A stretch of DNA of 64,000 bases, taken from Escherichia coli. GTDB lineage: Bacteria; Pseudomonadota; Gammaproteobacteria; Enterobacterales; Enterobacteriaceae. The notes beneath the pieces were generated by a model. The model saw nothing but the letters and a program-made list of their open reading frames with translations, did not search any database and was not told the DNA's origin. Below are positions 9,314 to 60,264 of this stretch, in pieces; the stretch's first letter is position 1, and the number at the start of each line of letters is the position of its first letter. The position numbers and the translations under genes were made by a program. Location: NCBI RefSeq assembly GCF_050920415.1, contig NZ_CP169309.1; one strand, 5' to 3'.

Positions 9314-9358
9314 ATGAAAGCGATTTTCGTACTGAAAGGTTGGTGGCGCACTTCCTGA
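9314..9358 (+). CDS. trpL: trp leader peptide (14 aa, [14 protein letters not shown])
   Basis: ATG AAA GCG ATT TTC GTA CTG AAA GGT TGG TGG CGC ACT TCC TGA with tandem Trp codons. Confidence 0.9.
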
Positions 9359-9398
9359 AACGGGCAGTGTATTCACCATGCGTAAAGCAATCAGATAC

Positions 9399-9428
9399 CC
9401 AGCCCGCCTAATGAGCGGGCTTTTTTTT
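9399..9428 (+). terminator. trp attenuator (3:4 hairpin plus U-run)
   Basis: agcccgcc-taat-gagcgggc followed by eight T. Confidence 0.9.
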
Positions 9429-41582: not shown

Positions 41583-42425
41583 ATGCATTCACTCCAACGT
41601 AAAGTTCTGCGTACTATTTGTCCGGACCAAAAAGGTCTGATCGCCCGTATTACTAATATTTGCTATAAGCACGAGTTAAATATCGTGCAGAACAATGAAT
41701 TTGTTGATCACCGTACCGGGCGCTTTTTTATGCGCACGGAACTGGAAGGCATTTTTAATGATTCCACCCTGCTGGCGGATCTCGACAGCGCATTGCCAGA
41801 AGGCTCCGTACGTGAGCTGAATCCTGCCGGTCGTCGCCGGATAGTGATTCTGGTCACTAAAGAGGCGCATTGCCTTGGCGATTTGTTGATGAAAGCCAAT
41901 TACGGCGGCCTGGATGTCGAAATCGCGGCAGTTATTGGTAACCACGATACTTTACGTTCTCTGGTTGAGCGTTTTGATATTCCGTTTGAGCTGGTAAGTC
42001 ATGAAGGATTAAGTCGCAACGAGCACGATCAAAAAATGGCGGATGCCATTGACGCTTATCAGCCTGACTACGTGGTGCTGGCGAAGTATATGCGCGTATT
42101 AACGCCAGAGTTCGTAGCACGCTTCCCGAATAAAATTATCAATATTCACCATTCATTCCTGCCAGCGTTTATCGGTGCACGTCCCTATCACCAGGCCTAT
42201 GAGCGTGGCGTGAAGATTATTGGTGCAACCGCTCACTATGTGAATGACAATCTGGATGAAGGCCCAATCATCATGCAGGACGTTATTCATGTCGATCATA
42301 CATACACGGCTGAAGATATGATGCGTGCAGGTCGTGATGTCGAGAAAAACGTATTAAGCCGCGCGCTTTACAAAGTGCTGGCGCAGCGTGTATTTGTTTA
42401 CGGTAACCGGACGATTATTCTTTAA
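41583..42425 (+). CDS. purU: Formyltetrahydrofolate deformylase
   Basis: 280 aa; N-terminal ACT domain plus formyltransferase domain. Confidence 0.92.
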   Translation: MHSLQRKVLRTICPDQKGLIARITNICYKHELNIVQNNEFVDHRTGRFFMRTELEGIFNDSTLLADLDSALPEGSVRELNPAGRRRIVILVTKEAHCLGDLLMKANYGGLDVEIAAVIGNHDTLRSLVERFDIPFELVSHEGLSRNEHDQKMADAIDAYQPDYVVLAKYMRVLTPEFVARFPNKIINIHHSFLPAFIGARPYHQAYERGVKIIGATAHYVNDNLDEGPIIMQDVIHVDHTYTAEDMMRAGRDVEKNVLSRALYKVLAQRVFVYGNRTIIL

Positions 42426-42507
42426 TCGCTGGCAAAATAGAACTGGTTGCCTTTAATCCGTTACGGATGAAAATTACGCAACCAGTTCATTTTTCTCAAC
42501 GTAACCC

Positions 42508-42535
42508 TTTACAGCGGCGTGTCATTTGATATGAT
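42508..42535 (+). promoter_or_regulatory. tyrT promoter: -35 TTTACA, 16-bp spacer, -10 TATGAT, GC-rich discriminator
   Basis: tttacagcggcgtgtcatttgatatgatgcgccccgc read directly; stringent-control-type discriminator. Confidence 0.85.
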
Positions 42536-42585
42536 GCGCCCCGCTTCCCCACAAGGGAGCAGGCCAGTAAAAAGCATTACCCCGT

Positions 42586-42670
<85 letters not shown>

Positions 42671-42704
42671 TCTCAAGCATTACATCAAAATTTGAATTAT
42701 CCCT

Positions 42705-42789
<85 letters not shown>

Positions 42790-43501
42790 TCACTTTCAAA
42801 AGTTCCTGAAATCCCCAACAAATCCACAATTAAATATTCTGCCCATGCGGGGAAGGATGAGAAGCTTCGACTAAGGTTCGACTCGAGCGCCAGCGAGAGA
42901 GCGTTGCCGCAGGCAACGACCCGTAGGGCGAAGCGCGCAGCGCTGAGTAATCCTTCCCCCACCACCATCACTTTCAAAAACCCCTGTATTCTCCAACGAA
43001 TCCGTAACTGAATATTCTGCCCATGCGGGGAAGGATGAGAAGCTTCGACTAAGGTTCGACTCGAGCGCCAGCGAGAGAGCGTTGCCGCAGGCAACGACCC
43101 GTAGGGCGAAGCGCGCAGCGCTGAGTAATCCTTCCCCCACCACCATCACTTTCAAAAACCCCTGTATTCTCCAACGAATCCGTAACTGAATATTCTGCCC
43201 ATGCGGGGAAGGATGAGAAGCTTCGACTAAGGTTCGACTCGAGCGCCAGCGAGAGAGCGTTGCCGCAGGCAACGACCCGTAGGGCGAAGCGCGCAGCGCT
43301 GAGTAATCCTTCCCCCACCACCATCACTTTCAAAAACCCCTGTATTCTCCAACGAATCCGTAACTGAATATTCTGCCCATGCGGGGAAGGATGAGAAGCT
43401 TTGACTAAGGTTCGACTCGAGCGCCAGCGAGAGAGCATTGCCGCAGGCAACGACCCGTAGGGCGAAGCGCGCAGCGCTGAGTAATCCTTCCCCCACCACC
43501 A
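42790..43501 (+). repeat. Four tandem 178-bp direct repeats (rtT region), each ending in the last ~19 nt of tRNA-Tyr
   Basis: Unit boundaries 42790-42967, 42968-43145, 43146-43323, 43324-43501; copies 2-4 near-identical, copy 1 diverged at its 5' end; each ends ccttcccccaccacca. Confidence 0.9.
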
Positions 43502-43623
43502 TCACACCCTTAAATACTCAAAACCTGTTACTTCAAGCTAATTTGCCCCGTGGCACCGCGTTTACCGGACCTACAATATCCTCCCCTATATGTCAGATAA
43601 GCGAATCACTCCGCAGCGTACCC

Positions 43624-43650
43624 ATAAAAAAACCCCGCCGAAGCAGGGTC
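43624..43650 (-). terminator. narGHJI operon terminator
   Basis: Minus-strand hairpin accctgc-ttcg-gcggggt followed by seven U. Confidence 0.6.
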
Positions 43651-43669
43651 TGTGTGAACTAAAATTCAC

Positions 43670-44347
43670 TTAGTGGCGAGCGCGCACCAGCTGATACTTA
43701 CGTGTCAGATACTCCACCGGGACACTCCAGATGTGCACCAAACGCGAGAACGGGAACAGCAGGAATAACGTCATCCCCAACACCAGGTGCAGACGGAAGA
43801 TAAACGCCACACCATCAAGGTGTTGAGAAGCGCCACCGTGGAAGGTCACCACCGACTGCGCCCAGCCAACCAGTTTCATCATCTCGCTACCGTCCATATG
43901 TTGGGCAGAAAATGGAATAGTCAGCAGACCCAACGCGCACTGGATAACGAGCAGCGACAGGATCAGGATGTCCGCCCCGGTAGTCGTTGCACGCACACGC
44001 GGGCTGAACAGGCGGCGTTTCAGCAACAGCACGCCGCCAATCAGACACAGCACGCCGCTGGCACCACCAGCAATCATCGCCATTTTCTGTTTCACTTCAA
44101 TTGGCAACCACGCTTCATACATCCAGTGCGGCGTCAGCATACCGAAGAAGTGGCCGACAAAAATCCCCAGAATTCCGATATGGAACAGGTTCGACGCCAG
44201 GTTCATCCCTTTGCGATCCAGCATCTGGCTGGATGCCGCGCGCCAGGTGTACTGCCCGTAGTCATAGCGCAGCCAGCTACCAATCAGGAAGACGGCCCCG
44301 GCTATGTACGGGTAGATATCAAAGAAGAACATATTCAGGAATTGCAT
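43670..44347 (-). CDS. narI: Respiratory nitrate reductase gamma subunit
   Basis: 225-aa membrane cytochrome b subunit. Confidence 0.95.
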
Positions 44348-45057
44348 TAGTGCTGTCCTCCGGTGGTGATATTCAGATATTGCGGCGCGACGGCACCGGC
44401 AAAGCGACGCTGATGAGCAGTGATTGCTGAATCACCGCAACCTTTGTCAGCAAAGAACTTAACCTGCTCTTCTTCCCAGACAGCATCCAGCGCCTGTGGC
44501 GTATCGTCGCGCGCTTCGTCGGCAATTTTTTCCGCCACTTTGTCGCTGTCGATAGCGGTATTCGCCAGTTTCAGCAGCAGATCAAACAGCACGGCATAAC
44601 GGCTTTCACGCTGTTGCAGACGCGCGCTCAGCAACGCCAGAATCGGCGCGATATCTTTCAAACCTTCCACAGCTTCGCTTTGCGGCAGCTGCGCCAGATA
44701 CTCCAGATACAGCGGCAGATGATCCGGTAATTCACGACTGTTCAATTGCAAACCGTGCTGCTCATACTGTGCCAACAAGTCAACCATTGCCTGGCCGCGA
44801 TCGCGGGATTCACCGTGAACATGCTCAAACAGCAGCAACGACGTGGCGCGACCACGGTCGAACAGTTCGCTGTACTGGGCCTGAGCATCCAGCGGATCCA
44901 GCGCTGTTAAATCGCGCAGGAAAATGCCCAGCGCATGGGCATCCTCTTTCGACAGATTTTCCGACGCAGCAATCGCCTCAAACATCTCTTGTTGATGCTG
45001 CCATAAGGCAGCATCCGGATATTCAAGGAGACGCGATACAATCACGAGTTCGATCAT
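44347..45057 (-). CDS. narJ: Nitrate reductase assembly chaperone
   Basis: 236 aa; overlaps narI start by 1 nt and narH stop by 4 nt. Confidence 0.95.
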
Positions 45058-46592
45058 GGGTGCGGCTCCGTTTTACTGGTCACGTCGATGGCATCGATAC
45101 GGCGGCTGTTGAACAGATTGAATTTGGTATCTGAACCGTGGCAGCCGTCACCAAAGGTAAAGCCACAGCCATTTTTCTCCGGGAAGGCTTCCCGCGCCAG
45201 TTCACGGTGACTGCTCGGCACCACAAAGCGATCTTCGTAGTTGGCAATTGCCAGATAACGGTACATCTCCTGTGCCTGAGCTTCGGTCAGACCGACCTCT
45301 TCCAGCGCACGGGTATCAACTTTACCGTCAACGGTTTCAGCACGTTTGTAATGACGCATCGCCAGCATACGTTTCAGCGCGCGCAGTACCGGTTTGGTAT
45401 CACCGGCGGTCAGCAGATTCGCCAGATACTGTACCGGGATACGCAGGCTTTCGACGTCTGGCAAAATACCGTTGCTGCCCAGCTCGCCCGCATCTGCCGC
45501 AGACTGAATCGGCGACAGAGGTGGCACATACCAGACCATCGGCAGCGTGCGATATTCCGGATGCAGCGGCAGCGCCAGTTTCCATTCCATCGCCATTTTA
45601 TAAACCGGCGACTGCTGTGCGGCTTCAATAACGCTCAGCGGAATACCATCTTTAATCGCCTGCTCGATGACGTTCGGATCATTCGGATCGAGGAACACGT
45701 CCAGCTGACGCTGGTAGAGATCTTTCTCGTTCTCGGTGCTGGCTGCACGTTCAATCGCGTCGGCATCGTACAGCAGCACGCCAAGATAACGGATACGACC
45801 GACACAGGTTTCAGAGCACACCGTCGGCTGACCGGCTTCAATACGCGGATAGCAGAAGATGCACTTCTCAGACTTACCGCTCTTCCAGTTGAAGTAGATT
45901 TTTTTGTACGGGCATCCGGTGATGCACATACGCCAGCCGCGGCATTTGTCCTGGTCGATCAGGACGATGCCATCTTCTTCACGCTTGTAAATCGCACCGC
46001 TCGGGCAGGTCGCCACACATGCCGGGTTCAGGCAGTGTTCGCACAGGCGTGGCAAATACATCATGAAGGTGTTTTCGAACTGGCTATACATCGCCTTCTG
46101 GATGTTGTCGAAGTTCTTGTCTTTCGCCAGTTTGTCAAACTCGCCGCCCAGGTCATCTTCCCAGTTCGGTCCTTTTTCGATTTTCGCCATCCGTTCGCCG
46201 GTAATCAGCGAACGTGGACGGGCAATCGGCTGCGATTTGCTGCCTTCCGGCGCGGTATGCAGGTTCTGATAGTCAAAATCGAACGGCTCGTAATAATCGT
46301 CGATCCCCGGCAGATGCGGGTTAGCGAAGATTTTACCCAGCAGCATGGCGCGGTTACCCATGCGCGGTTGCAGTTTGCCGTTGATTTTTCGGATCCAGCC
46401 GCCTTTGTATTTTTCCTGGTTTTCCCAGTCTGTCGGGAAGCCCTGGCCCGGCTTGGTTTCCACGTTGTTGAACCACGCGTATTCCACGCCTTCACGGCTG
46501 GTCCAGACGTTTTTACAGGTCACTGAACAGGTGTGGCAACCGATGCACTTATCCAGATTCAGCACCATGCCGACTTGTGAACGAATTTTCAT
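45054..46592 (-). CDS. narH: Respiratory nitrate reductase beta subunit
   Basis: 512 aa with four Cys clusters for Fe-S centres. Confidence 0.96.
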   Translation of the reverse strand: MKIRSQVGMVLNLDKCIGCHTCSVTCKNVWTSREGVEYAWFNNVETKPGQGFPTDWENQEKYKGGWIRKINGKLQPRMGNRAMLLGKIFANPHLPGIDDYYEPFDFDYQNLHTAPEGSKSQPIARPRSLITGERMAKIEKGPNWEDDLGGEFDKLAKDKNFDNIQKAMYSQFENTFMMYLPRLCEHCLNPACVATCPSGAIYKREEDGIVLIDQDKCRGWRMCITGCPYKKIYFNWKSGKSEKCIFCYPRIEAGQPTVCSETCVGRIRYLGVLLYDADAIERAASTENEKDLYQRQLDVFLDPNDPNVIEQAIKDGIPLSVIEAAQQSPVYKMAMEWKLALPLHPEYRTLPMVWYVPPLSPIQSAADAGELGSNGILPDVESLRIPVQYLANLLTAGDTKPVLRALKRMLAMRHYKRAETVDGKVDTRALEEVGLTEAQAQEMYRYLAIANYEDRFVVPSSHRELAREAFPEKNGCGFTFGDGCHGSDTKFNLFNSRRIDAIDVTSKTEPHP

Positions 46593-49500
46593 TTTACGCT
46601 CTCCTGTACCTGGTCATTGCCTTCGCCATCTAACCAGTCAATGTTCTTCATCTTACGCACTACAACAAATTCATCGCGGTTAGAACCTACAGTGCCGTAG
46701 TAGTTAAAGCCGTATGCCAGATGGGCATAGCCGCCGATCATATGCGTCGGTTTCGGCGTGATACGGGTGACCGAGTTATGAATACCACCGCGCTGGCTGG
46801 TGATTTCTGAACCCGGCAGGTTAACGATACGTTCCTGCGCGTGGTACATCATGGTCATCCCTGCCGGAACACGCTGGCTGACAACCGCACGGGCAGTCAA
46901 TGCACCGTTGCTGTTGAAGACTTCAATCCAGTCGTTGTCGGCGATACCCAGCTCTTTGGCATCGGCTTCACTCAACCAGACCACCGGACCACCGCGACCT
47001 AAAGTCAGCATCAGCAGGTTGTCGCTGTAGGTGGAGTGGATACCCCACTTCTGGTGCGGTGTCAGGAAGTTGAGCGCTTTTTCCGGATTACCGTTAGATT
47101 TCTGGCCCATCACTTCTTTCACTGAACGGGTGTCGATCGGCGGACGATAAACCAGCAGGCTTTCACCGAAATCACGCATCCACTGATGATCCTGATACAG
47201 CTGCTGACGGCCAGAGAGCGTACGCCACGGGATCAGCTCGTGAACGTTGGTGTAACCGGCGTTGTAAGAAACATGTTCATCTTCAAGGCCAGACCAGGTC
47301 GGGCTGGAGATGATTTTGCGCGGCTGTGCCTGGATATCGCGGAAGCGGATCTTCTCGTCTTCTTTATTCAGCGCCAGATGCGTATGGTCACGACCGGTAA
47401 ACTCGCTCAGGGCAGCCCAGGCTTTCACGGCTACCTGACCATTGGTTTCCGGTGCCAGCGTCAGGATCATCTCTGCCGCATCAATTGCGGTGTTCAGCAT
47501 CGGCTGGCCTTTTGCCGGACCTTCCGCTTTGGTGTAGTTGAGCTTACGCAGCAGATCCATCTCGCTCTGGGTGTTCCAGGCAATCCCTTTACCGCCGTTA
47601 CCGATTTTCTCCATCAGCGGACCGATAGAGGTAAAGCGTTCGTAAGTTGCCGGATAATCGCGCTCTACGACCATAATGTGCGGTGCAGTTTTACCTGGGA
47701 TCAGGTCGCATTCGCCTTTTTTCCAGTCTTTCACATCCAGCGGCTGCGCCAGTTCAGCGGCAGAGTCGTGCTGGATCGGCAGCGTAACGATGTCGGTTTC
47801 TTTGCCCAGATGACCAACGCACACTTCGGAGAATTTCTTCGCGATGGCTTTGTAGATTTCCCAGTCGCTTTTCGCTTCCCAGGCCGGATCGACCGCCGCA
47901 GACAGCGGGTGAATAAACGGATGCATATCCGAAGTATTCATGTCGTCTTTTTCGTACCAGGTCGCCGTCGGCAAAATGATGTCGGAATAGAGACAGGTGC
48001 TCGACAGACGGAAGTCCAGCGTCACCACCAGATCCAGCTTGCCTTCCAGACCGTTGTCCTGCCAGTCCACTTCTTCCGGCTTCACGCCGCCCTGCTGACC
48101 CAGGTCTTTACCCTGGATACCGTGCTCCGTCCCCAGCAGGTACTTGAGCATAAACTCATGACCTTTACCGGAAGAACCGAGCAGGTTAGAACGCCAGATG
48201 AACAGGTTACGCGGGTGGTTTTTACCGTTTTCTGGTTGTTCTGCCGCAAAACGGATAGAACCCTCTTTCAGGGATTTCACGGTGTAATCCACCGGATTCA
48301 TGCCCGCTTTTTCCGCTTCGCGAGCGATAGTTAGCGGGTTAGTGCCTAACTGCGGCGCAGACGGCAGCCAGCCCATGCGTTCTGCACGGACGTTGAAGTC
48401 GATCAGATGTCCGGTATAGCGGGATTTATCCGCCATCGGCGACAGCAACTCTTCTGCGGTCACAGTTTCATAACGCCACTGGCTGGAGTGGTTATAGAAA
48501 TAAGAGGTGCTGTTCATGTGACGCGCCGGACGCTGCCAGTCAAGAGCAAACGCCAGCGGCTGCCAGCCGGTTTGCGGACGCAGTTTTTCCTGACCTACAT
48601 AGTGCGCCCAGCCGCCACCGCTCTGACCTACACAGCCGCAGAAAATCAGCATGTTGATCAGACCACGATAGTTCATATCGAGGTGATACCAGTGGTTCAG
48701 CCCCGCACCGACGATAATCATCGAACGACCGTGCGTCTTGTCAGCGTTGTCAGCAAATTCACGGGCAATGCGGATAATCTGGCTGCGAGAAACGCCAGTG
48801 ATCTGCTCGGCCCATGCCGGGGTGTAAGCTTTCACGTCGTCATAGCTGGTTGCGCAGTTAACGTCGTTCAGGCCACGTTCCAGACCGTAGTTTGCCAGCG
48901 TCAGATCATAAACGGTGGTCACCAGAGCAGTGCTGCCATCAGCCAGTTGCAGACGTTTTACCGGCAGCTTGTGCAGCAGCACATTTTCCAGCTCCACTTT
49001 ATTGAAGTGTTCCGTGCCGTCGCCACCAAAGTACGGGAAGCCCACTTCAGCGATCTCATCCTGGCTACCCAGCAGGCTCAGTTGTAGCTCAGTTTCTTCG
49101 CCGGTTTTGCCGTCGCGCTGCTCAAGATTCCATTTGCCCTTCTCGCCCCAGCGGAAGCCAATAGAACCGTTCGGTGCAACCATTTCGCCATTGGTATTGA
49201 AGGCGACTGTTTTCCATTCCGGATTGTTTTCCTGGCCCAGCGCATCCACCAGATCGGCAGCGCGCAGCATACGACCCGCAGCGTAGTAACCGTCGCGCTC
49301 TTCCAGCATCACCAGCATTGGCATGTCGGTATAACGACGCACATAGTCGGTGAAATACTGGCTTGGGTTGTCGAGGTGGAATTCACGCAGCATCACGTGG
49401 CCCATCGCCAGCGCCATTGCTGCGTCGGTGCCCTGTTTCGGTGCCAGCCACAGATCGCACAGTTTGGCGATTTCAGCGTAGTCCGGCGTGACGGCAACGG

Positions 49501-50332
49501 TTTTGGTGCCTTTGTAGCGCACTTCAGTAAAGAAGTGAGCATCCGGAGTACGCGTCTGCGGCACGTTTGACCCCCAGGCGATGATGTAGCTGGAGTTGTA
49601 CCAGTCAGCAGATTCCGGTACGTCAGTTTGCTCGCCCCAGGTTTGTGGAGACGCAGGAGGCAGGTCGCAGTACCAGTCGTAGAAGCTTAAGCAAGTACCG
49701 CCAATCAGCGAAAGATAGCGAGCACCCGATGCGTAAGAAACCATCGACATTGCCGGAATTGGCGAGAAGCCAGCGACGCGGTCCGGGCCGTAGTTTTTGA
49801 TGGTGTAAACGTTAGAGGCAGCGATCAGTTCGTTCACTTCCTGCCAGGAAGAACGAACAAAACCACCACGTCCACGCGCTTGTTTAAAGCTTTTCGCTTT
49901 ATCGGCGTCTTCAATGATAGAAGCCCATGCCTCAACCGGATCGCTATGCTGCGCCTTCGCTTCACGCCACATTTTCATCAGGCGTTTGCGCATCATCGGA
50001 TATTTCAGACGGTTGGCGCTATAGAGATACCAGGAGTAGCTGGCACCGCGCGGGCAGCCGCGAGGTTCATGGTTTGGCAGATCCGGACGGGTACGCGGAT
50101 AGTCAGTTTGCTGGGTTTCCCAAGTCACCAGACCGTTTTTAACGTAGATTTTCCAGCTGCAGGAGCCGGTGCAGTTTACCCCATGGGTAGAGCGGACGAT
50201 TTTGTCATGCTGCCAACGCTGGCGATATCCATCCTCCCAGTCACGGTTGGTATTGAGAAGCTGGCCATGCCCATCGGCAAAGGTTTCGCCCTTCTGTTTG
50301 AAGTAGCGAAACCGGTCCAGGAATTTACTCAT
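46589..50332 (-). CDS. narG: Respiratory nitrate reductase alpha subunit
   Basis: 1247-aa molybdoenzyme. Confidence 0.97.
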   Translation of the reverse strand: MSKFLDRFRYFKQKGETFADGHGQLLNTNRDWEDGYRQRWQHDKIVRSTHGVNCTGSCSWKIYVKNGLVTWETQQTDYPRTRPDLPNHEPRGCPRGASYSWYLYSANRLKYPMMRKRLMKMWREAKAQHSDPVEAWASIIEDADKAKSFKQARGRGGFVRSSWQEVNELIAASNVYTIKNYGPDRVAGFSPIPAMSMVSYASGARYLSLIGGTCLSFYDWYCDLPPASPQTWGEQTDVPESADWYNSSYIIAWGSNVPQTRTPDAHFFTEVRYKGTKTVAVTPDYAEIAKLCDLWLAPKQGTDAAMALAMGHVMLREFHLDNPSQYFTDYVRRYTDMPMLVMLEERDGYYAAGRMLRAADLVDALGQENNPEWKTVAFNTNGEMVAPNGSIGFRWGEKGKWNLEQRDGKTGEETELQLSLLGSQDEIAEVGFPYFGGDGTEHFNKVELENVLLHKLPVKRLQLADGSTALVTTVYDLTLANYGLERGLNDVNCATSYDDVKAYTPAWAEQITGVSRSQIIRIAREFADNADKTHGRSMIIVGAGLNHWYHLDMNYRGLINMLIFCGCVGQSGGGWAHYVGQEKLRPQTGWQPLAFALDWQRPARHMNSTSYFYNHSSQWRYETVTAEELLSPMADKSRYTGHLIDFNVRAERMGWLPSAPQLGTNPLTIAREAEKAGMNPVDYTVKSLKEGSIRFAAEQPENGKNHPRNLFIWRSNLLGSSGKGHEFMLKYLLGTEHGIQGKDLGQQGGVKPEEVDWQDNGLEGKLDLVVTLDFRLSSTCLYSDIILPTATWYEKDDMNTSDMHPFIHPLSAAVDPAWEAKSDWEIYKAIAKKFSEVCVGHLGKETDIVTLPIQHDSAAELAQPLDVKDWKKGECDLIPGKTAPHIMVVERDYPATYERFTSIGPLMEKIGNGGKGIAWNTQSEMDLLRKLNYTKAEGPAKGQPMLNTAIDAAEMILTLAPETNGQVAVKAWAALSEFTGRDHTHLALNKEDEKIRFRDIQAQPRKIISSPTWSGLEDEHVSYNAGYTNVHELIPWRTLSGRQQLYQDHQWMRDFGESLLVYRPPIDTRSVKEVMGQKSNGNPEKALNFLTPHQKWGIHSTYSDNLLMLTLGRGGPVVWLSEADAKELGIADNDWIEVFNSNGALTARAVVSQRVPAGMTMMYHAQERIVNLPGSEITSQRGGIHNSVTRITPKPTHMIGGYAHLAYGFNYYGTVGSNRDEFVVVRKMKNIDWLDGEGNDQVQESVK

Positions 50333-50423
50333 CGGTTTTCTCCTGTGGGAGCCTGTCGGCTCTCTGATAAATCGACATTGCTAATGTTTAAGGGCAAGGT
50401 AACGCTCTGAAACAGCGTGGGAA

Positions 50424-50437
50424 TTGATAACGATCAA
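50424..50437. promoter_or_regulatory. FNR box TTGATAACGATCAA upstream of narG
   Basis: Match to TTGAT-N4-ATCAA consensus about 90 bp upstream of the narG ATG. Confidence 0.75.
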
Positions 50438-50474
50438 GAGTGATGGGGATGAAAAATAAAGTAAATTCCTAAGA

Positions 50475-50481
50475 TACCCCT
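50475..50481. promoter_or_regulatory. NarL heptamer TACCCCT in the narG upstream region
   Basis: Matches TACYYMT consensus; other heptamers probably present but not mapped. Confidence 0.5.
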
Positions 50482-50724
50482 TTAGGATAATTAACAGTTA
50501 CATCATAAAATACTGTAAATTAAGGCATTTTATACCTGTAGTTATTTAAACTATTAAGAATTTTATGCAGATGGGTATTAAGGAGTATTCCCCATGGGTA
50601 ACATATTAATGGCTCTTAATGAAATCCGGCGAAATAAGCCATATAACATTAGTATGTTGTAACTAAATGATGCATAAAAAAAGCGCGACATCATGCCGCG
50701 CAAAGGATAATCAAATATTAAGAT

Positions 50725-59324: not shown

Positions 59325-59729
59325 CAGTTATATCTCCTCCGATGACAGAAATCGGGGGAGATAATATAAATTCCTGCTTATTGTATTTCTTCATACTACC
59401 TGAACAGGTCGTTAATCAGAATTGCGAGCCTGTACCACAACCTGCACGAAACCACTGCAACAGCTGTTGAAAAGCCGGAATGTACTCTTTATTGCAAACA
59501 TTTCAGGGATGAAGTGAAGATGAATTGAGACGTAATATCCACACCAAGCCGGCGTTATCCGGTGAGGCGCAATGTTGCGGGGGCTTTATCCCTGGTGGCA
59601 TTGGTTGCTGGAAAGAGAAAACCCCCGCACGTTGAGAGGTAAAACCTGACAACAGAACGGGGGCTAATCTTGAACCATCAACAATTCAAGAATAGCCGCA
59701 AAATGTTGTCATTACAACAAGGCGGCTAT

Positions 59730-59837: not shown

Positions 59838-60264
59838 GGTGAAAACGGGCGTCAGGCTGCCGTGATGGCAATATGCGCCCGAAACCGGCCGCAGGGGTAA
59901 CAGCCTGCGGCCCTTTTTGTCTTTATCTCTTCTGCAAGTAAATATTGGCAACCCGAGCTGGAAGCATCATCCAGAGCACTCATGAAACGACTGTAACAGC
60001 TGTTGAAAAACCGGAATGCACTCTTCATTGCAAACATTTCAGGGATGAAGTGAAGATGAATTGAGACGTAGTATCCACACCAAGCCGGAGTTATCCGGTG
60101 AGGCGCAATGTTGCGGGGGCTCTATCCCTGGTGGCATTGGTTGCTGGAAAGAGAAAACCCCCGCACGTTGAGAGGTACAACCTGACAACAGAACGGGGGC
60201 TAATCTTGAAACCAGACACTTCAAGAATAGCCGCAAAATGTTGTCATTACAACAAGGCGGCTAT

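Follow-up and report, generated by a model that had tools for sequence, protein, structure and literature searches.

The 64-kb stretch of Escherichia coli DNA analysed here (hereafter the window) very probably contains a tyrT operon made up of a promoter, two identical tRNA-Tyr genes and a four-unit allele of the known, variable RtT tandem repeat, expressed and changing in copy number along the lines of the model proposed below. The repeats sit between the purU and narI genes. The window is 100% identical to the corresponding sequence of E. coli MFDS1022581 (NZ_CP169399.1), whose RefSeq annotation places two tRNA-Tyr genes and four features labelled 'RtT sRNA, processed from tyrT transcript' in the interval from purU to narI, and calls no CDS across the repeats. 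Neither the element nor its RNA family is new, and both its annotation in this genome and its copy-number polymorphism are already on record.

Two tRNA-Tyr(GTA) genes were located by ARAGORN on the plus strand, at positions 42586-42670 (the tyrT equivalent; Rfam tRNA score, 53.4 bits) and 42705-42789 (the tyrV equivalent, also recognised by Rfam). They are identical in sequence and separated by a 34-bp spacer (42671-42704); direct reading and parsing of the locus showed that the RtT unit of 175 bp immediately preceding this spacer in K-12 is missing here. A consensus scan of the upstream DNA returned the motif TTTACA-16 nt-TATGAT (42508-42535, plus strand; 10/12 matches), with a TG preceding the −10 hexamer and a G+C-rich stretch following it. 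The position of this motif agrees with the K-12 tyrT upstream region and, from established knowledge of K-12, we take it to be the functional tyrT promoter. On the opposite side of the tRNA genes, Tandem Repeats Finder reported a single array spanning 42771-43505, with a period of 178, 4.1 copies, 97% matches and 0 indels. When phased from the base after the second tRNA-Tyr, the segment 42790-43501 is cut into four head-to-tail units of exactly 178 bp apiece, all on the plus strand: unit 1 at 42790-42967, unit 2 at 42968-43145, unit 3 at 43146-43323 and unit 4 at 43324-43501. The 4 nt that follow (TCAC, 43502-43505) are the start of a fifth unit and account for the count of 4.1. Both the repeat search and the unit cut thus agree with the earlier note, which had described four 178-bp units directly after a tRNA-Tyr doublet. 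Chance is an implausible source of such an array, given an exact direct repeat of 391 nt at offset 178 inside it and E-values between 1e-25 and 1e-28 for its four Rfam matches.

On the plus strand, the DNA 3' of the array yielded no intrinsic terminator. The terminator-like sequence at 43630-43651 lies on the minus strand and is the intrinsic terminator of the convergent nar operon, whose narI gene occupies 43670-44347 (minus strand). A promoter-like site, GTGGCA-16 nt-TACAAT, is present between the array and narI (43550-43577, plus strand; 9/12 matches) and points into the narI end; it is probably a chance match.

Each of the four units gave a full-length match (model positions 1-130) to the Rfam RtT family, RF00391. 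The scores were 132.8, 132.8, 132.8 and 124 bits for units 1 through 4, against a gathering score of 45, and the corresponding cores lie at 42836-42967, 43014-43145, 43192-43323 and 43370-43501. The placement of the array is also that of RtT: unit 1 immediately follows the CCA of the second tRNA-Tyr, on the plus strand, with the tyrT promoter upstream. In K-12, the rttR annotation is 171 nt long; it starts 8 nt beyond the tyrV CCA and stops where unit 1 does. In the window, every unit terminates in AATCCTTCCCCCACCACCA, which is the 3'-terminal 19 nt of tRNA-Tyr with CCA included. This 19-mer occurs six times in the 64-kb window, in the two tRNAs and the four units, and at no other site; the tRNA 3' tail of about 19 nt formerly attributed to each unit is exactly 19 nt long. 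The first ~59 nt of a unit constitute a variable, C-rich and G-poor spacer and the remaining ~119 nt a conserved, structured core. Direct reading of the sequence indicated that the closing helix of the core, GGGGAAGG/CCUUCCCC, copies three base pairs from the lower acceptor stem of tRNA-Tyr together with the T-stem (five pairs) on which they stack. What remains of the acceptor 3' strand stays unpaired, as does the CCA, the unit terminus being the tRNA's own CACCACCA. The RtT core is, on this reading, a tRNA 'minihelix' in which an insert of about 100 nt replaces the T-loop.

The structure was tested on an alignment (A1) comprising 36 RtT units and representing about 20 genera of Enterobacterales, using the RNAalifold consensus and 500 shuffles. 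Mean column identity was 84% and standard pairs were formed in 98.8% of the cells. Eight pairs were changed on both sides, against a mean of 1.9 in the shuffled alignments, and none of the 500 shuffles attained the covariation score of the real alignment. Pairing fell to 34-53% once the partners were shifted by 1-3 columns. Two helices, at columns 47-53/58-64 and 67-72/79-84, showed the compensatory changes; the closing helix hardly varies in this alignment and is hence uninformative on covariation either way. A similar view emerges from a published covariation analysis that supports part of the RtT structure (PMC8250186). PMC3318445 cites Bösl & Kersten 1991 as the RtT RNA paper.

The four units of the window are not equally related. 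Units 2 and 3 are the same at every position and unit 4 departs from them by two substitutions, at positions 79 and 114. One of these converts a G-C pair of the CGUUGC/GCAACG hairpin (alignment A1 columns 68/83) into an A-C mismatch. Between unit 1 and unit 2 there are 11 differences, all of them within the first 43 nt, which give unit 1 a distinct spacer haplotype; despite these changes, the cores of units 1-3 are identical. Hence, the near-identity of copies 2-4 and the divergence of copy 1 at its 5' end, both noticed at the outset, were accurately described.

The window locus closely resembles the tyrT-tyrV-rttR region of K-12, with which it shares the position between purU and narI, the promoter, the two identical tRNA-Tyr genes, the 178-bp unit and the 19-nt tail. 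Covariance-model scores for RtT are equivalent in the two (133-137 bits in K-12 and 124-133 bits in the window), and the arrays are roughly 93-95% identical. Egan and Landy reportedly described the K-12 tyrT repeat in 1978 as '178 bp repeated 3.14 times'. The earlier note had given 3.14 copies as the classical figure, and this holds for K-12 MG1655, where Tandem Repeats Finder counted 3.1 downstream copies as compared to 4.1 in the window. K-12, however, carries an additional RtT unit between tyrT and tyrV. This unit, 175 bp long, scores 132.9 bits, is followed by the same 34-bp spacer and has diverged from the downstream units by about 55 differences (fetched locus L001, 1830-2038); the window is without it. 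Thus, K-12 has a 1+3 arrangement of RtT elements and the window 0+4, for a total of four in each, and the difference between the two is not the simple gain of one unit. Alignment to the reference tyrT locus, which the earlier note had called for, therefore confirmed the presence of one more downstream unit than in K-12 but not a larger number of RtT elements overall. The two arrays differ also in homogeneity, with 0-2 differences among units 2-4 of the window versus 8-9 among the three K-12 units.

In a scan of one genome per species, many Enterobacterales genera proved to have the RtT motif next to their tRNA-Tyr genes, each locus holding 1 to 7 units. RtT lies directly after the tRNA-Tyr genes, as it does here, or is interleaved with them in Leclercia adecarboxylata, Citrobacter youngae, Klebsiella michiganensis and Pantoea ananatis. 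The arrays of these other Enterobacterales are tandem, repeat at intervals of about 170-178 bp and have ...CCACCA at the end of every unit, whereas copy numbers and interleaving vary by genus and the spacers are unrelated to those of the window, which is the E. coli version of the element. The 23-nt RtT motif used in the scan also matched contigs labelled as non-Enterobacterales, namely Alistipes (L048) and Prevotella (L056) metagenome-assembled genomes, Hyphomonas (L050), Martelella (L064) and Phormidesmis (L082). Single matches of this kind may be due to chance. A contig of Chryseobacterium sp. 18061 (L068) showed two motif matches 175 bp apart and looks like a true RtT tandem, which suggests contamination or mis-binning.

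To place the four-unit array among other strains, a collection of 5,426 complete E. coli genomes was searched with a query made by joining 1 kb of each flank, the span of the record giving the locus length. Length classes were checked on fetched loci, and two systematic samples amounted to 88 genomes with both flanks joined. Coverage of a whole-locus query was unusable for counting, for overlapping repeat alignments are joined and one-copy genomes reach 100%; instead, an E-value limit of 1e-300 was applied, which no alignment passes unless its length requires four or more contiguous units. In the 88 sampled genomes, the downstream units numbered 0 (3 genomes), 1 (28), 2 (19), 3 (32), 4 (4) or 5 (2). 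Twenty-four of the 32 genomes with three downstream units are of the K-12 type (1+3), and all four genomes in the four-unit class carry inter-tRNA units. By locus-length class, an inter-tRNA unit is present in 41 of the 88 genomes (about 47%), some loci having 3 or 5 such units (L008, L136); genomes with one or three tRNA genes also occur in this sample. The ranges seen overall were 0 to 9 for downstream units, 0 to 5 for inter-tRNA units and 1 to 3 for tRNA genes. At the extremes, many genomes lack RtT altogether and one strain contains 5+9, or 14, units.

Four or more contiguous downstream units were found in 324 of the 5,426 genomes (6.0%; percentages are descriptive only, the collection being biased to clinical clones and to K-12 derivatives from the laboratory). 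Of the rows sampled in this class, about half have exactly four units, which suggests that an array of exactly four occurs in roughly 3% of genomes. An uninterrupted tRNA doublet followed by at least four units was observed in 154 genomes. The best 60 of these 154, that is, the source strain and 59 others, all gave single colinear alignments with the exact 0+4 layout; therefore, at least 59 and at most 153 other genomes share the layout of the window. The sources of these 60 genomes are humans, dogs, poultry, cattle and water, and several countries are represented. The earlier note had considered that four copies could turn out to be the common state in reference strains; at about 3% of complete genomes, this is not the case. 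Four downstream units represent a minority allele, yet an unremarkable one, since anything from 0 to at least 9 such units occurs at the locus.

In about 20% of the genomes the gap between purU and narI is more than 1.5 kb wider than usual. Three such loci were examined and each was different. In strain STEC1585 (L003, 13824-14804), an IS621 element of the IS110 family is inserted between the array and narI. In an O25b:H4 strain (L135, 5101-8999), a genomic island encoding desaturases, a PAP2 phosphatase and an F390 synthetase-like protein directly follows a single tRNA-Tyr gene, and RtT is absent. The third wide gap (L136, 5128-7682) is the 14-unit (5+9) array itself. The idea that all of the wider loci were IS621 insertions was rejected, two further examples showing the class to be mixed. 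The purU gene, both tRNA-Tyr genes and RtT were also encountered in a few plasmid-typed or small-replicon records (38 places on plasmids; for example the 195-kb NZ_CP195449.1). These records could correspond to F-prime-like elements, chromosome fragments or mis-assigned contigs.

The comparison of repeat number across strains that had been suggested did disclose variation, from 0 to at least 9 downstream units, but such variation is already exploited for typing, since the tyrT-RtT locus is the published VNTR marker ms09 used in MLVA. The ms09 primers, GTGCCATCGGGCAAAATTAG and CCGATAAGGGAGCAGGCTAGT, map either side of the locus in K-12, where the reverse primer has 1 mismatch and lies just upstream of tyrT. 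The primer-bounded locus has a period of 178 and 0 to 14 units across complete genomes; the stated repeat size of ms09 is 179 bp (PMC8215070, PMC4644529). In 80 E. coli isolates, ms09 showed nine alleles (0, 1.5, 2.5, 3, 4, 4.5, 5, 6 and 7), some null alleles and a Simpson diversity of 0.81 (PMC8215070), a spread that agrees with that of copy numbers in complete genomes. According to PMC8215070 and PMC4644529, the Shigella/E. coli typing panel that includes ms09 originated with Gorgé et al. 2008. An ms09 allele reflects the whole primer-to-primer interval, so that tRNA genes, inter-tRNA units and downstream units are scored together. In the window, both sites homologous to the primers are imperfect: the reverse primer site (42548-42568, plus strand) has 3 mismatches and the forward primer site (43538-43556, plus strand) a 1-nt deletion and 2 mismatches. 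Consequently, the window allele might amplify poorly or be scored as 'null' in PCR typing.

Identity to K-12 falls to 92-96% at about 42000-50500, an interval extending from the 3' end of purU through narI, narJ, narH and narG, as opposed to 97.5-99% in the rest of the window. This flanking haplotype is shared at 96% identity or more by about 16 of the 5,426 genomes. The tyrT/nar flank may be an old or an imported haplotype. Flank identity to most E. coli, at only ~94%, had raised the possibility of a cryptic Escherichia clade; this was rejected since identity to K-12 over the entire window is ~97.5% and the dip is local. Elsewhere in the window, two matches to the rdlD family of antitoxin RNAs, associated with the ldr/rdl long direct repeats, were detected on the minus strand at 59616-59681 and 60152-60217 (K-12 has three ldr/rdl copies at the matching locus, a second case in which the window differs from it in the number of tandem repeats), and the tryptophan operon leader (RF00513, 93 bits), an ordinary feature, at 9335-9428.

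Clues to how copy number changes came from the extraction of every unit from 16 loci. Unit 1 of the window is the same as unit 1 of strains 2013C-4282 and 24A16CRGN010, two close flank relatives. Units 2 and 3 match unit 1 of strain EC42405, the same unit type thus occupying another position, and unit 4 shows two differences from the terminal units of two relatives. Comparable homogenisation is seen in Z0117EC0005, whose four units are identical, in RMDEC465, where the units form an AABB pattern, and in EA13, whose three inter-tRNA units are nearly identical. Ranked by flank similarity, the top 15 genomes (at least 95.9% identity) have 1 (6 genomes), 2 (3), 3 (2) or 4 units (4). In a laboratory lineage, one tRNA gene was lost together with RtT (PMC12584984). 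The identity of units 2 and 3, the shift of unit types between positions and the range of 1 to 4 units among flank relatives support the unequal crossing-over or gene conversion invoked in the earlier note, with copies 2-4 homogenised or duplicated recently, and speak for frequent misaligned recombination and conversion at this locus. We propose that the 178-bp units, the tRNA genes and the shared 19-nt tails would misalign homologously, and that unequal crossing-over, replication slippage or gene conversion would then add or remove units and homogenise those that remain. The four units of the window would represent one state of this ongoing process of gain and loss. The molecular route, be it RecA-dependent exchange, slippage or conversion, cannot be distinguished from sequence alone.

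As for expression, the biology of the K-12 locus leads us to propose that the array would be co-transcribed with the tRNAs from the tyrT promoter. The tRNA-maturation machinery, acting on the tRNA-like 3' ends, would then excise RtT RNAs of ~171 nt. Transcription would be stopped within the repeats by Rho and not by a hairpin terminator. Rho-dependent termination has been reported for this region in K-12, and the 59-nt spacers of the window, with 18-19 C versus 4-6 G, have the C-rich, G-poor composition that suits it. By the same analogy, the regulatory role of RtT would likely consist in a modulation of the stringent response.

Other explanations for the array were weighed against this model. 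That assembly error produced the fourth unit, and that three or some other number of units is the real count, appeared very improbable. It is the case that units 2 and 3 are identical, that the 391-nt exact repeat is of the kind that short-read assemblers can collapse or expand, and that the copy number of the window is taken from one public assembly. This assembly, however, is recorded as a 'complete genome', its units are exactly 178 bp long with no anomalies at the junctions, at least 59 other complete genomes, independent of it and differing in host and country, have the same doublet and four-unit layout, and other genomes have been assembled with up to 9 downstream units. A proposal that the significance of the repeat lies in protein coding, whether for the Tpr peptide on the plus strand or for YchS-like proteins on the minus strand, seemed scarcely credible. 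K-12 does carry annotations for tpr (29 aa; protamine-like protein) and ychS (91 aa) in the repeat, and the window has four overlapping minus-strand open reading frames of 190, 133, 133 and 92 aa (42522-43094, 42871-43272, 43049-43450 and 43227-43505) that are long and 88% identical over 91 aa to YchS (b1228), a 'putative uncharacterized' protein. This match attests to homology of the DNA and not to the existence of a protein. As 178 is not a multiple of 3, the minus-strand reading frame shifts with every unit, and the length of these frames is set by a copy number that can be anything between 0 and 14; none of them is called in the RefSeq annotation. They are best read as by-products of the repeat, in keeping with the earlier view that the array creates them artefactually. 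On the plus strand, the intact 29-codon tpr gene annotated in K-12 (b1229) is absent from the window. Only remnants persist (42857-42874, 43035-43052, 43213-43230 and 43391-43408), all four units reading ATG AGA AGC TT(C/T) GAC TAA (MRSFD-stop), with the stop at codon 6. Intact copies numbered 0 to 4 in other strains among the 16 loci, several of which had none, a distribution that argues against tpr being a conserved gene. Moreover, the C/T change that makes the stop turns a G-C pair of the Rfam consensus into G-U, preserving the pairing, as would fit selection at the RNA level.

It is also conceivable, if unlikely, that the four-unit state is adaptive, the extra dose of RtT titrating factors that process or bind tRNAs, or tuning tRNA-Tyr output or termination. 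The strong conservation of the core over Enterobacterales, with its mean column identity and covariation, speaks in favour of such a role, as do the recurrence of tandem multi-copy arrangements in many genera, the maintenance of identical cores in units 1-3 next to a different spacer in unit 1, and the stress-related signals reported at rttR. Yet healthy E. coli lineages range from 0 to 14 copies, some having none, and the number differs even between close flank relatives; the helix-breaking substitution in the distal unit 4 is what weak constraint on distal copies would be expected to allow. A bolder version, to which we assign a slightly smaller and quite low probability, would have RtT arrays act as a dosage-tunable 'contingency' element, in which units mimicking the acceptor/T-arm of tRNA-Tyr, with a free CACCACCA end, set the level of competition through the number expressed. 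If this were true, RtT would compete with tRNA-Tyr for the factors that process, bind or cleave it, and lineages could readjust that competition by gaining and losing units rapidly, the four-unit, tpr-less allele being one setting of the dial.

We thus favour the model in which the window carries one allele of a probably processed, tRNA-mimicking repeat of variable unit number. The '3.14 copies' of K-12 is likewise one allele among many, and a figure that ignores the inter-tRNA unit of that strain. With an exact repeat of 391 nt, copy numbers taken from short-read assemblies are unreliable at such a locus, and neither the long minus-strand open reading frames nor the tpr frame should count as genes. 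The RtT core itself is deeply conserved in Enterobacterales.
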